From NCBI GenBank assembly GCA_965208325.1, contig OZ242326.1, positions 96,001-160,000 on the forward strand: a stretch of DNA of 64,000 nt. Direction: 5' to 3'. Under the pieces are notes generated by a model that worked only from the letters and a program-made list of their open reading frames with translations, did not search any database and was not told where the DNA came from. Source of the stretch: Candidatus Poribacteria bacterium (lineage in GTDB: Bacteria; Poribacteria; WGA-4E; PCPOR2b). The position numbers and the translations under genes are program-made. Position 1 is the stretch's first letter. Each line of letters opens with the position of its first letter. This document shows, piece by piece, positions 38,377 to 42,267 of this stretch.

Positions 38377-38925
38377 TCAATAGGTACGGAATAATATATC
38401 AAACACAGGACGTTCATCGACGCGATAATCGAAGGAATCTCGGCACATGATCGTTTTCCCGTGCTGATCCGTGAATTTCAGGCGAATTTTAATCTTGGTA
38501 CTGGGAATTAGTTCATCAAGCGCAAAGGTTTCGTAGAAATCCTGCCGTTCATCAGGTTTTAACGTCAAAGGAAGGTTATTACGGAGCAAACTCGGAAAGA
38601 TGACCGCTTGAGGAACATCATAAAGTTTGGTAACGTACCATTTGCGGCCTATCTTCGATTGTAACCGGGATTCTTGAACTGAAACGGCAACTTGATCGTT
38701 ATCATTGTAAATCCGGAACGAGGTCAGAAACAATAAATTCCCGCCGCGCGTCATGAAGCAATTCGTCTGGCCTTCCAAAAGTTCCACCCTAATATCCGAT
38801 GCCCGCCACCTACGCCGACGGCTTCCCCGATTTGGTTGGCTCGTCCGAAAATCATAAATCCATTTTGCGCTTGAGATTAAGATAGCTGCAATGCCGAATA
38901 TGAGAGCAATTGTCGCACGGTCCAC
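38377..38925 (-). CDS. Hypothetical protein with N-terminal membrane anchor
   Basis: Open frame; hydrophobic IALIFGIAAILIS then a beta-rich soluble part; GTG 38925 chosen as start (uncertain). Confidence 0.6.
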   Translation of the reverse strand: MDRATIALIFGIAAILISSAKWIYDFRTSQPNRGSRRRRWRASDIRVELLEGQTNCFMTRGGNLLFLTSFRIYNDNDQVAVSVQESRLQSKIGRKWYVTKLYDVPQAVIFPSLLRNNLPLTLKPDERQDFYETFALDELIPSTKIKIRLKFTDQHGKTIMCRDSFDYRVDERPVFDILFRTY

Positions 38926-39030
38926 TTGTAAGTAAGTCCCAGAAATCAAAGAGATAACTTTGCTTCTGCTTGGTAATGTCACAGTCTTTGGCGTTCCGGA
39001 CACAGAAGCGGCGTTTTTCGTCCATTCCTT

Positions 39031-39059
39031 TTGACTTTTGTATTGCAGTTGGGTAAAAT
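39031..39059 (+). promoter_or_regulatory. sigma70-type promoter for the candidate selenoprotein gene
   Basis: TTGACT-17 bp-TAAAAT, about 60 bp before ATG 39122. Confidence 0.6.
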
Positions 39060-39121: not shown

Positions 39122-39607
39122 ATGCCGCGAAGAAACAAAGTCCTCAACATCGGTGACAATGCGCCGCTGTTCACCTTGCAATCCGCTCAAAGAGACGATG
39201 TTAGTCTCGCATCGTATCGCAATAGGCGGCACGTCATTTTAGCCTTTTTCCGAGGCACATGGTGACCTAATAGCCGCCGCCAGTTAGGCGATTTACAAAC
39301 TCACTTGAATGAATATATCAGATTTGGCGCCGAAGCCATCGCGATTGCCGGGCAGTGGCCTCGAGAAGTTCGCCGTTATGCTCAGAGGCACGGCATCGCC
39401 TTTCCGTTACTCATTGATAAGCACCGGACCGTCATTAAAAGCTACGGCGTTTATCATTGGCTAGGACTCGACGCTTATAACATTGCACGTCCCTCGACAT
39501 TCATTGTTGATAAGGAGGGAATTATCCGATTCATTCATGTAGGCTCACACCAGTTTGACCTTCCTAAACATGCCAGTCTCATCGCATGTGTAGAATCCTT
39601 GGAATGA
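39122..39607 (+). CDS. AhpC/TSA (peroxiredoxin-like) protein with in-frame TGA, probable selenocysteine at codon 48 (UxxS)
   Basis: ATG 39122 gives ...IGDNAPLFTL...VSLASY...VILAFFRGTW-TGA(39263-39265)-PNSRRQL..., continuing in frame into ORF 39305..39607 (FPLLID, RPSTFIVDKEGIIRF). Confidence 0.88.
39266..39296 (+). promoter_or_regulatory. Candidate bacterial SECIS hairpin
   Basis: CGCC(39278-81)/GGCG(39287-90) stem with loop AGTTA starting 16 nt after the UGA; CCTAA/TTAGG is an alternative pairing. Confidence 0.5.
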
Positions 39608-39640: not shown

Positions 39641-40645
39641 TTAAAGCGTATCGCGAGTCAGTTGGTTCAATATTCCTAACTGCCTATTATCCGCGATGAC
39701 AATAAGCGCGTCGCCCTCATCCAGCCTGAGATTGCCAGAGGGATTGTATATAATATCGCCGGCTCGATTGCGGACAGCTACGACGACGAGACCTGTTTCA
39801 TCCGGGATTCGGGCATCGTTGAGGGTAAGCCCCAAAAAAGGTGATTCGCTCTGGATTGTGGATTCGGCAAAGCGCGTCGTCACTTGGTGTTTGAGCATAT
39901 CATCCAAAAAATCAACGACAATTGGACTTATGACTGTCGATACTAGACGCAATCCTCCAATCTGATCCGCGAGTACGACATCATCCGCACCCGCTTTCGT
40001 CAACTTTGCCCGTGAACTCTCCTCGACAGCCTTCGACGTTATTCTCAAGCTCCGATTTAGCTGTTTCGCCGATAAAACAACGAAAAGATTGTCTTGATCC
40101 GTCGAAAGAGAAGCAATCAACCCTTGCGCACGATCGATTCCAGCACGGATGAGCACTTCGTCTTCTGTTGCATCGCCTTGTACATAGTGGAAATGTCTTG
40201 TTTTCAGTAAATGTTCAATTTGCACTTGATCTCTCTCAATTGCGACGAAGTCAGCGTTCAGGTGAATGAGTTCATCAAGCGCATGTACCCCAGTGTCGCC
40301 TACCCCGCAAACGATATAATGGTTTGAAAGTTTGTCAATAGATTTTTCCATGCGTCTCTTCAAAAAAACTTCCTGTAACTGCCCTTCAATAATGAATGTA
40401 GCTGTTATACTAATGCCGTATCCAAGAACTCCAATCCCTCCAAGAATCAGCGCAACTGTGAAAATTTTTCCCTCATCCGACATATTGTAATCTGCATAAC
40501 CGACTGTTGTCAATGTGATTACCGTCATGAAAATTGAGTGAAGTAGAGTCCAATCCTCCTCAATTACTTTATATCCCGTGACGCCAATGGCGAAAACGGC
40601 AATCATCGCAAATACTGCGATAACAATGTTGCGTTGATACTCCAA
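39641..40645 (-). CDS. Two-TM potassium channel with RCK (TrkA-N/TrkA-C) domains
   Basis: Pore VITLTTVGYAD, HYIVCGVGDTG, GDAT...L..AGI..A. Confidence 0.9.
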   Translation of the reverse strand: MEYQRNIVIAVFAMIAVFAIGVTGYKVIEEDWTLLHSIFMTVITLTTVGYADYNMSDEGKIFTVALILGGIGVLGYGISITATFIIEGQLQEVFLKRRMEKSIDKLSNHYIVCGVGDTGVHALDELIHLNADFVAIERDQVQIEHLLKTRHFHYVQGDATEDEVLIRAGIDRAQGLIASLSTDQDNLFVVLSAKQLNRSLRITSKAVEESSRAKLTKAGADDVVLADQIGGLRLVSTVISPIVVDFLDDMLKHQVTTRFAESTIQSESPFLGLTLNDARIPDETGLVVVAVRNRAGDIIYNPSGNLRLDEGDALIVIADNRQLGILNQLTRDTL

Positions 40646-40788: not shown

Positions 40789-41475
40789 TCACGTTCCCTC
40801 CATCTGCTGATACTGAATGGTTTCCAACCGCGATTTCAGCCGTTCGGTTTGGAAGCGCAGCATTAGGAAAAACACGTAGAGGACGGTAAGCGCCAGCCAG
40901 GCAATCACCCAAGTTTTGAACATCGTCGGTGGAAGGTTCATTTTAGTTTCTATTCCTGGATGTAACTTGTCTTTCCAGAGCTCGACCGAGAAGTAGACAA
41001 TTGGGACATCAAGATAAGCGAGTATACCTAGAACCGCTGAATAGACTCTCTTTTTCTCTTCGGGCAACGCCGATCTCAGTATAAAATAACCGATATACAT
41101 GAGCCAAAGGATGAGTGTGCTGGTTAATCGTGGTTCCCAATTCCACCACGTATTCCAAGCATATTTTGCCCAGATGGGGCCTGTCGTCAAAACGACTGTA
41201 CAGAAAACGATGCCAAGTTCCGCTGACGCAACGGCAAGCAAGTCGAATTTTTCATTACGTTTTATCAGGTAAAAAATGCTGCACAAAAAAGTTACACCAA
41301 AAGCAAGGAAAACAGTAAACGCTGAAGAAACATGGAAGTAGAAAATTTTCTGGACTTCCAGCATCGTCTTTTCAATCTGGGCGTAACTGAAAACAAAACA
41401 GAGGGCAGTAAACAGGCAAACTGCTGCAAGAATGCCAACGAGTTGAGTAAGCGTCACTTTCTTCAATCCCTCCAA
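40789..41475 (-). CDS. ccmC: Heme exporter/cytochrome c assembly protein C
   Basis: IFYFHV, TGPIWAK..WNTWWNWEPRLT, SVELW..LHP. Confidence 0.9.
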   Translation of the reverse strand: MEGLKKVTLTQLVGILAAVCLFTALCFVFSYAQIEKTMLEVQKIFYFHVSSAFTVFLAFGVTFLCSIFYLIKRNEKFDLLAVASAELGIVFCTVVLTTGPIWAKYAWNTWWNWEPRLTSTLILWLMYIGYFILRSALPEEKKRVYSAVLGILAYLDVPIVYFSVELWKDKLHPGIETKMNLPPTMFKTWVIAWLALTVLYVFFLMLRFQTERLKSRLETIQYQQMEGT

Positions 41476-41550: not shown

Positions 41551-42267
41551 TCAGTCCTCAATTACGAACTCAAATAGCAGAAAAGAACTCGCCAGAAAAA
41601 CAAGGCTATAGGCGGCTAAAAGCGTAATCCAAAACAACCCTTTTAGTGCGCCGATTGTCAAAAGAGAGACAGTGCACTTTGCCCCGGCCATAATGACGGG
41701 AAGAATCAACGGCAGTAATATTACTGAAAGTAGACTTTCGTTCCCGTGTGTACTAGTAGAAACGCCGGATACCACAACCCCCACCGCGCAGAAACCCAGT
41801 GCGCCGATTGCGAGCACGCCCATAAGCTGGACCAGAATCTGAGGGAGCTTTTTTTGTAAATCCGGTGTCAAAGTATCAAACACATCCAAAAATTGCAACC
41901 CAACTAGCAGGACAATTATTTCCAGCCCGGTTAGCAGAACCAAGTTGCTCAAAACCTTGGCTAGGTAAAAGTTGCCCGGATCAATCCCTGTTAGTCTTAT
42001 CCCATGTAATGCGCCGTCTGCACGTTCAATCTCGAAGGATCGGTTCAGCGTAATGATTCCCGCGAACGCAAATGCTGACCACAGCGCACTCGCAGCGAGT
42101 TTTCCACGCTCGGCAGCACCTTGGGGAAAAATGGATCCAAATGCAAAAATGAAAATGAGTACAACCAGTATGCTGAATACGAGAATTAAGGCGAGTGTAT
42201 CCTTTGTACGAAATTGCAGCGCGAGATCCTTGCGTATGAGCCAACCAACCTGATGGATTCCAGTCAT
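41551..42267 (-). CDS. ccmB: Heme exporter protein B
   Basis: KDL....R, LNRSF..E...G.L, LL.VILLPLILPV; adjacent to ccmC. Confidence 0.88.
   Translation of the reverse strand: MTGIHQVGWLIRKDLALQFRTKDTLALILVFSILVVLIFIFAFGSIFPQGAAERGKLAASALWSAFAFAGIITLNRSFEIERADGALHGIRLTGIDPGNFYLAKVLSNLVLLTGLEIIVLLVGLQFLDVFDTLTPDLQKKLPQILVQLMGVLAIGALGFCAVGVVVSGVSTSTHGNESLLSVILLPLILPVIMAGAKCTVSLLTIGALKGLFWITLLAAYSLVFLASSFLLFEFVIED

Follow-up and report, generated by a model that had tools for sequence, protein, structure and literature searches.

The 64,000-nucleotide stretch of Candidatus Poribacteria bacterium DNA analysed here (the window, to which positions refer unless a genome contig is named) derives from a source genome consisting of a single contig of 4.7 Mb and carries at 39122-39607 an open reading frame (ORF) interrupted by a single in-frame TGA. 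We consider it probable that this segment is one gene encoding a 161-amino-acid redox protein of the thioredoxin/peroxiredoxin (Trx/Prx) fold, in which a selenocysteine (Sec) at position 48, inserted by SelB and tRNA-Sec with the help of a short hairpin, would be the sole redox residue. That codon 48 is a real Sec codon is, judging from sequence comparison, very highly probable. The features on which this proposal is built are the following.

39122..39607, + strand: full coding sequence of the predicted 161-amino-acid AhpC/TSA-fold selenoprotein, including the terminating TGA at 39605-39607
39263..39265, + strand: UGA codon 48, read as Sec (the U of U-P-N-S) on grounds of conservation and Sec machinery
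39275..39290, + strand: selenocysteine insertion sequence (SECIS)-like element, made of a conserved block at 39275-39285 and a 4-bp hairpin, CGCC-AGUUA-GGCG, at 39278-39290

The frame is opened by ATG 39122, and the ORF list reports it in two pieces only, 39122..39265 (47 amino acids) and 39305..39607 (100 amino acids, TTG start). When the TGA is read through, the product displays the local motif VILAFFRGTW-U-PNS-RRQL and a Pfam AhpC-TSA domain (PF00578, residues 10-137, E 2.4e-28, 99 bits) extending across the TGA, with Redoxin also matching (E 3.4e-15). The N-terminal sequence MPRRNKVLNIGD, preceding an AhpC-TSA domain that begins at residue 10, contains no hydrophobic segment, signal peptide or membrane segment, and its start MPR(K/R)NK is kept in all 34 orthologues of the near sample described below. 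A read-through protein of this length with an AhpC/TSA N-terminus was what an original prediction, made from the letters of the window, had put forward, and both the frame and the domain spanning the TGA confirm it.

Conservation of the TGA was followed in samples of increasing breadth. An orthologue (61-99% identity) is present in 34 of 41 genomes, a set made up of the source genome and the 40 nearest to it, the other seven having only distant paralogues; each orthologue contains exactly one TGA, always at codon 48, within UPNS in 33 cases and UPNT in one. In a wider sample of one genome per GTDB species, 218 relatives were returned and the best 80, which overlap the 34, were analysed: all are titled Poribacteria or 'uncultured bacterium' and all 80 carry TGA at codon 48 (UPNS 79, UPNT 1). 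Finally, a search of the phylum gave matches at E <= 1e-40 in 149 of 176 genomes, 147 of them with one TGA and two with none; by family, the matches cover 27/28 genomes of f1, 109/112 of f2, 11/11 of f3 and 0/7 of f4, with almost none elsewhere. Both flanks of the codon are under purifying selection, the median dN/dS being 0.098 over codons 2-47 and 0.080 over codons 49-158 (400 sampled pairs among 81 genes), and the strongest protein conservation, from F42 to L55, spans the TGA. Furthermore, contigs from four sponge metagenome runs belonging to four studies span codon 48 with no difference listed at 39263-39265, the closest difference to the UGA being a synonymous T>C at 39268; no RNA run was listed among the 24 runs.

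The two phylum members lacking the TGA differ in their distance from the gene. G047 has a 50%-identical relative of the CxxC form (WCQHC). The orthologue of G071 (L141, C1:2915760-2916227; 63% identity) carries instead TGT, that is Cys, in a CPNS motif (FFRGTWCPNSRRQL) while the downstream hairpin sequence is unchanged; no other close orthologue lacks the TGA, and Sec seems to have been exchanged for Cys recently here. Cys is also found at the Sec site in aligned homologues from the public collections, as CPNS in P0116 and as CPNC in P0117, P0118 and P0121 (FFRGTWCPNC or FHRGTWCPNC). The TGA thus occupies the first-Cys position of the family motif, as had been predicted. We take the full motif, FxRGxWCPxC, to be the hallmark of cd02970. 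With a UGA that is nearly fixed (147/149) and one Cys form occurring in nature, the gene lends itself to a clean comparison of Sec and Cys among natural variants.

The division of the gene into two pieces in the ORF list and the existence of one orthologue with TGT could be taken to indicate a pseudogene, or a sequencing or assembly error, produced by a single nonsense change in a Cys-type gene. We give this explanation practically no credence: a nonsense mutation, a read error and a pseudogene are all excluded because the TGA is shared (34/34, 80/80 and 147/149), because selection with dN/dS around 0.1 operates on both sides of it and because independent contigs agree. The predictions that had been named as tests all came out in favour of the original prediction, here that relatives share TGA or Cys within conserved flanks and that independent assemblies keep TGA. 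Chance is excluded because the codon-48 TGA is conserved; the hairpin is not the reason.

The genome possesses the complete machinery for Sec insertion, all parts scoring above curated cut-offs, as had been anticipated. tRNA-Sec was detected with 77.5 bits (cut-off 47) and was called by ARAGORN as tRNA-SeC with anticodon tca; its gene is adjoined by both selA (588.7 against 267.9 bits) and selB (373.5 against 242.25). selD (376.8 against 125 bits) itself contains one in-frame TGA, and three other genes of the Prx/Trx fold carry a TGA in the active site. These loci of the source genome (G000) are:

C1:4481278-4482201, outside the window: selD (L018), TGA in the context KCAG-U-ASKLDPG
C1:4409441-4409890: Prx/Trx-fold gene L041, active-site TGA in YRGQW-U-PSC (UxxC)
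C1:1378234-1378614: Prx/Trx-fold gene L042, active-site TGA in FTSG-U, a canonical TxxU peroxiredoxin
C1:4184438-4184788: Prx/Trx-fold gene L043, active-site TGA in TTS-U-GPC (UxxC)

In the selD sequence a 5-bp stem can be drawn whose GGG loop begins 16 nt past the UGA, the same spacing as in the 39122-39607 gene, a parallel that speaks for an RNA element in the latter; this stem is not the displayed minimum-energy fold.

UGA might be read through as something other than Sec, either by near-cognate Trp or Cys or as Cys through the Sec pathway, and in this sense could be cited the modest hairpin described below and the W placed at the site in P0002-P0004 and P0138. These W residues are, however, gene calls made under code 4/25, and UGA is not reassigned in these organisms because TGA terminates the gene itself and 23 of the 80 orthologues. 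The genome has complete Sec machinery and several other genes with active-site TGA, and homologues without UGA have Cys, or Ser in one clade, at the site and never Trp. Such non-Sec decoding appears to us very unlikely.

In public collections the gene appears almost exclusively in fragments. Among 120 homologues listed from a collection of 5.8 billion proteins, 113 are pieces of 91-120 amino acids starting past the TGA with coverage of at most 66%. A piece of 111 amino acids bears the NCBI name 'peroxiredoxin family protein'. The seven full-length entries consist of three with W at codon 48 and four Cys forms (one CPNS, three CPNC). All NCBIfam models stay below their cut-offs (ResA 64.3 against 170 bits, the SelL-related NF040769 53.7 against 120, Bcp 51.1 against 140, PrxQ 26.2 against 260, PrxU 21.4 against 270, DsbE 21 against 123), which explains why the gene escapes the annotation pipeline. 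The expectation that standard pipelines would mis-annotate it was borne out: public annotation misses or splits the gene throughout a phylum of sponge symbionts, and the selenoproteome and antioxidant capacity of Poribacteria are therefore under-counted.

That databases annotate the C-terminal piece, and once also an N-terminal fragment ending in ...FFRGTW (P0243), would fit a UGA that simply terminates, leaving only a 47-residue peptide or a separate 100-residue protein initiated at TTG 39305, with the downstream conservation serving re-initiation or another purpose; the hairpin, which is minimal and misses the published energy criterion in this gene, points the same way. Against termination, a single Pfam domain and a single compact predicted fold extend across the TGA, conservation peaks across it between F42 and L55, and the Cys homologues are continuous. 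In addition, TTG 39305 falls within the helix of residues 62-67 of the structural model. We accordingly assign only a very small probability to termination and retain Sec decoding of codon 48.

The RNA downstream of the UGA likely contains a short, position-fixed hairpin acting as SECIS. This hairpin, the only suitably placed one in the gene, has a stem (39278-39281 paired with 39287-39290) that begins 12 nt past the UGA and an AGUUA loop (39282-39286) that begins 16 nt past it, G followed by U being its second and third bases. The principal sign of constraint is a freeze of synonymous positions in codons 51-55, where S51 is AGY in 33/33 orthologues, R53 CGC in 31/33, Q54 CAG in 34/34 and L55 TTR in 34/34, while invariant Arg, Leu and Gln columns elsewhere in the gene vary freely in codon use. 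Alignment columns 13, 14, 16, 17 and 19-23 are invariant in 80/80. In the mean folding-energy profile of 81 genes the trough at the UGA is among the two deepest (-7 to -8.7 kcal/mol compared to a typical -2 to -5), the second, of equal depth, lying at nt 208-264. When an 8-pair stem closed by an AGUU tetraloop was evaluated in the 62 orthologues whose Leu codon is TTG (60 distinct sequences), 87.1% of the positions were paired, compared to 15-55% in slid controls and 80% in the 3-nt alternative register. The variable pair 18-25 is CG in 27 sequences, UA in 7, UG in 6, AU in 1 and unpaired in 19, and the observed value of double-sided changes at this stem was reached in 25 of 500 shuffles. The weak point of the element is that its support comes mainly from synonymous-site conservation, with little covariation. 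Another register, having a YCAGU loop, was tried and performed no better than shuffles.

The energy of the hairpin is -6.4 kcal/mol, or -7.4 in another 4-bp register, and reaches -11.0 in a typical relative, the hairpin being longer in most relatives. The bacterial SECIS (bSECIS) model of PMC13188914 calls for a loop of 3-9 nt, a stem of 4-16 bp, a G in loop positions 1-2, a spacing of 16-37 nt and a minimum free energy <= -7.5 kcal/mol. The hairpin with a G-containing loop that had originally been described behind the codon is thus correct as to the loop, which starts 16 nt after the UGA, but it has only 4 bp and does not attain the energy, which places the gene at the margin of the model.

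Several observations weigh against our interpretation and most of them concern this RNA. The 5-nt loop with G in second position, the 4-bp stem and the 16-nt spacing fit the bSECIS model and the energy misses its threshold; an in-house implementation of the bSECIS criteria passed 19 of 81 real sites and, among control pseudo-sites taken from these genes, 472 of 1647, thereby failing to tell real sites from controls, and the gene's own site did not pass. Shuffled sequences fold as stably as the 86-nt region (z -0.12), RNAalifold yielded no consensus structure from 34 downstream segments, and a fixed-register 6-pair model was 72.5% paired with few compensatory changes. L041, L042 and L043 all have longer downstream hairpins or stems. 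Apart from the RNA, the neighbourhood gives no functional partner because synteny ends at the genus, and a sister clade having Ser in place of Sec (WSPxTRRQ) keeps the scaffold without a redox residue, so that the chemistry may not be that of a simple peroxidase. A hairpin this short and this fixed in position can serve as a demanding test for models of the bacterial SECIS, and it is this minimal SECIS, together with a shifted single-selenol active site, that makes the gene mainly of interest.

An AlphaFold2 model built on a 15-sequence alignment had a mean pLDDT of 89.5 and a pTM of 0.86. Foldseek placed it close to Sulfolobus Bcp4 (3hjp, TM 0.90) and to Mycobacterium tuberculosis AhpE (TM 0.86), the latter also ranking first among PDB entries by sequence (E 3.3e-18, approximately 31% identity). 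In the phmmer alignment to AhpE, ffRgtwUpnS lies on ffPlafTgiC, which puts R44, U48 and S51 at the P, T and C of PxxxTxxC. Sec48 would accordingly stand at the Thr position of a peroxiredoxin, Ser51 at that of the peroxidatic Cys and Arg44 at that of the Pro. No Cys column is conserved among the 80 orthologues, the sole recurrent one being column 156 (31/80), and because no other Cys is conserved the protein is best described as a one-selenol enzyme. This agrees with the original prediction that the second CxxC position had become Ser, leaving Sec as the only redox residue. Its description as peroxiredoxin-like holds for the AhpC/TSA fold but not for the active site, where Sec replaces the Thr and not the peroxidatic Cys.

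This register bears directly on whether the protein is a canonical peroxiredoxin of the Bcp/PrxQ or AhpE type with Sec as its peroxidatic residue. The Pfam assignment to AhpC-TSA and the best sequence and fold matches, AhpE and Bcp, would favour this possibility. It is not a canonical peroxiredoxin, however, since Sec lies three residues before the peroxidatic position, where Ser is found; additionally, the Bcp, PrxQ and PrxU models of NCBIfam score far under their cut-offs and a true TxxU peroxiredoxin is encoded elsewhere in the genome (L042, FTSGU). We regard a canonical peroxiredoxin as very improbable here. A relation to SelL or SelL-related proteins (NF040769) was tested as well: the score is below cut-off and the motif is UxxS instead of UxxU or CxxC. 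ResA/CcmG/TlpA thiol-disulfide oxidoreductases, considered as another candidate, were rejected on scores below cut-off and on a protein with no membrane anchor or signal peptide.

We propose that the protein would function as a cytoplasmic one-selenol oxidoreductase, its UGA being decoded by SelB and tRNA-Sec aided by the hairpin behind the codon. The selenolate of Sec48, at the N-terminus of the predicted active-site helix (residues 49-60), would attack an oxidised substrate, forming Se-OH with a hydroperoxide or Se-S with a disulfide, whether mixed or not. Sec48 may be tuned by Ser51 and by a set of invariant polar residues (R44, T46, W47, N50, Q78, R123 and Q144). Lacking an internal resolving Cys, the protein would then depend on an external thiol, such as thioredoxin or a thiol of low molecular weight, to resolve the Se-OH or Se-S intermediate. 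Glutathione peroxidases and CxxS monothiol oxidoreductases likewise rely on an outside thiol for resolution. A hydroperoxide has about an even chance of being the main substrate; between peroxide and disulfide we prefer neither, and the Arg-rich motif and the clade with Ser for Sec leave room for an anionic substrate.

A bolder view would make the protein a distinct enzyme class. The chalcogen would have moved from the peroxiredoxin position to a U-x-x-S/T register resembling that of glutathione peroxidase on a peroxiredoxin scaffold, and a pocket rich in arginine (invariant R44, R52, R53, R81, R84, R102 and R123) would receive an anion as substrate, for example peroxynitrite, an oxyanion or the hydroperoxide of an acidic lipid; the SECIS would be an unusually small, 13-nt hairpin outside the consensus, its AGUU(A) loop fixed at 16 nt past the UGA, and the Ser clade a non-redox binder of the same ligand. 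We consider this combination unlikely, if worth stating.

A tree of 127 rows was inferred by a quick method with SH-aLRT support (Shimodaira-Hasegawa-like approximate likelihood ratio test), rows without alignment over residues 20-138 having been dropped beforehand. In the wider family, positions 48 and 51 correspond to the CxxC of FYRGxWCPxC proteins. The tree comprises, among others, 81 CxxC, three CxxA and two CxxS rows, eight Poribacteria UxxS rows, one UxxS row read as W and 20 Ser-first rows (17 SxxT). The Poribacteria clade (support 99) and the clade of P0138 and P0116 (support 97) are separate branches of a polytomy, and the order of the UxxS, CxxS, SxxT and CxxC clades is not resolved by this tree. 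P0138 is a distant UxxS relative (35% identity, RGTW-[TGA read as W]-PNSRGQL) that passes the PF13911 (AhpC-TSA_2) cut-off with 28.4 against 27 bits and has in common with the Poribacteria protein the motif GTW-U-PNSR-QL.

The Ser clade in this tree is well supported and contains 20 homologues of 200-390 amino acids (P0152, P0154, P0155, P0159-P0161, P0167, P0171 and others). Its motif, FAPGxW-S-PxT-RRQ, mostly has Thr at +3 and is devoid of a redox residue; no Pfam family was matched by the C-terminal tail, which is of low complexity in P0154. Two multidomain arrangements were also observed in the family. In P0132 (443 amino acids) a CxxC domain is fused to a methyl-accepting chemotaxis domain (PF00015, E 1.9e-29), and from its sequence this protein may be a redox-sensing chemoreceptor; P0140 is of like length (441 amino acids). 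The top-scoring representative, P0122 (1430 amino acids), contains five AhpC-TSA repeats (PF00578, 267.7 bits), at least one of them with CPFS.

The AhpC/TSA UxxS type (cd02970/pfam13911) is already catalogued as a predicted selenoprotein family and is thus not new. Table 1 of PMC13188914 lists it as 'predicted with high confidence', with MDX2448127.1 as an example, and a passage of a 2022 review (PMC9312934) gives 'AhpC/TSA family protein, pfam13911, UxxS' with CAB1081847.1. Both credit Zhang and Gladyshev 2007 (PMC1976440); the passages of that paper covered here mention UxxS motifs in general and do not name an AhpC/TSA UxxS family. The corresponding passages from the GOS (Global Ocean Sampling) survey (PMC2398784) list Prx-like families only with UxxC or UGC. 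A literature search covering titles and selected passages returned nothing on a Poribacteria UxxS gene or on bench work with the UxxS AhpC/TSA type. Like the catalogued type, the gene described here has an AhpC/TSA domain, one Sec, a UxxS motif and Cys homologues, and both are predicted only; it differs in remaining below the PF13911 cut-off (15.8 against 27 bits) and in that the tree does not join the Poribacteria and P0138 clades. From these comparisons the gene is likely a new, phylum-wide and mis-annotated representative of the catalogued type.

Three other systems resemble it in part. Prx-like thiol:disulfide oxidoreductases (PF00578, UxxC/UxxU; 'Prx-like 1' in a passage of PMC2398784) have the same Pfam domain and Sec at the first CxxC position, and L041 (WUPSC) is a same-genome paralogue of the UxxC type. 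These proteins keep the second Cys, so that an internal selenenylsulfide is possible in them, whereas in our gene Ser or Thr stands there in 34/34 and 80/80 orthologues. AhpE, a 1-Cys peroxiredoxin and the closest solved relative (PDB 1xvw, 4x1u), similarly uses one catalytic chalcogen and no resolving Cys, but in the alignment Ser51 falls on its catalytic Cys and Sec48 on its Thr. Glutathione peroxidase likewise has the Trx fold, places its one Sec where the active-site helix begins, carries a hydroxyl residue at +3 and, in its selenium forms, lacks a resolving Cys. The two registers are presumably equivalent by way of CxxC-derived motifs. The motif of glutathione peroxidase (PF00255) is UxxT (PMC13188914). 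Our protein has no Pfam GSHPx match and its scaffold is that of a peroxiredoxin, so it would work alike without being a member.

The promoter region and the genes surrounding the selenoprotein gene in the window are:

39031..39059, + strand: putative sigma-70-like promoter, TTGACT-17 nt-TAAAAT, 63 nt before the ATG
38377-39003, - strand: divergent ORF of 208 amino acids with no Pfam match, found (78-97% identity) only in three other genomes of the genus
39641-40645, - strand: TrkA-N/TrkA-C potassium channel
40789-41475, - strand: CcmC-like protein of cytochrome c maturation
41551-42267, - strand: CcmB of cytochrome c maturation

The promoter matches the consensus at 10 of 12 positions, and both hexamers (the -35 hexamer at 5 of its 6 positions) and a surrounding block are invariant in four of four genomes of the genus whereas the flanks diverge. 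Two such sites occur in 1 kb compared to 1.3 +/- 1.1 in shuffles, which is not significant alone; the good sigma-70 promoter originally proposed thus has a close match and invariance across the genus but does not by itself exceed the expectation from shuffling. The ccmB and ccmC genes lie 1.2 kb from the gene on the opposite strand, and the potassium channel, ccmC/ccmB, a TP-methylase and the 208-amino-acid ORF are linked to it only within the genus. Genus g5 (L028-L040) displays another arrangement, with a same-strand SelA-like/aminotransferase class V pyridoxal phosphate (PLP) protein upstream (PF03841, 41 bits, approximately 130-1350 in locus coordinates) and a glycerophosphodiester phosphodiesterase (GDPD) downstream that overlaps the gene's stop (1973-2690 in locus coordinates); this context was seen in 11-12 of the 20 loci compared.

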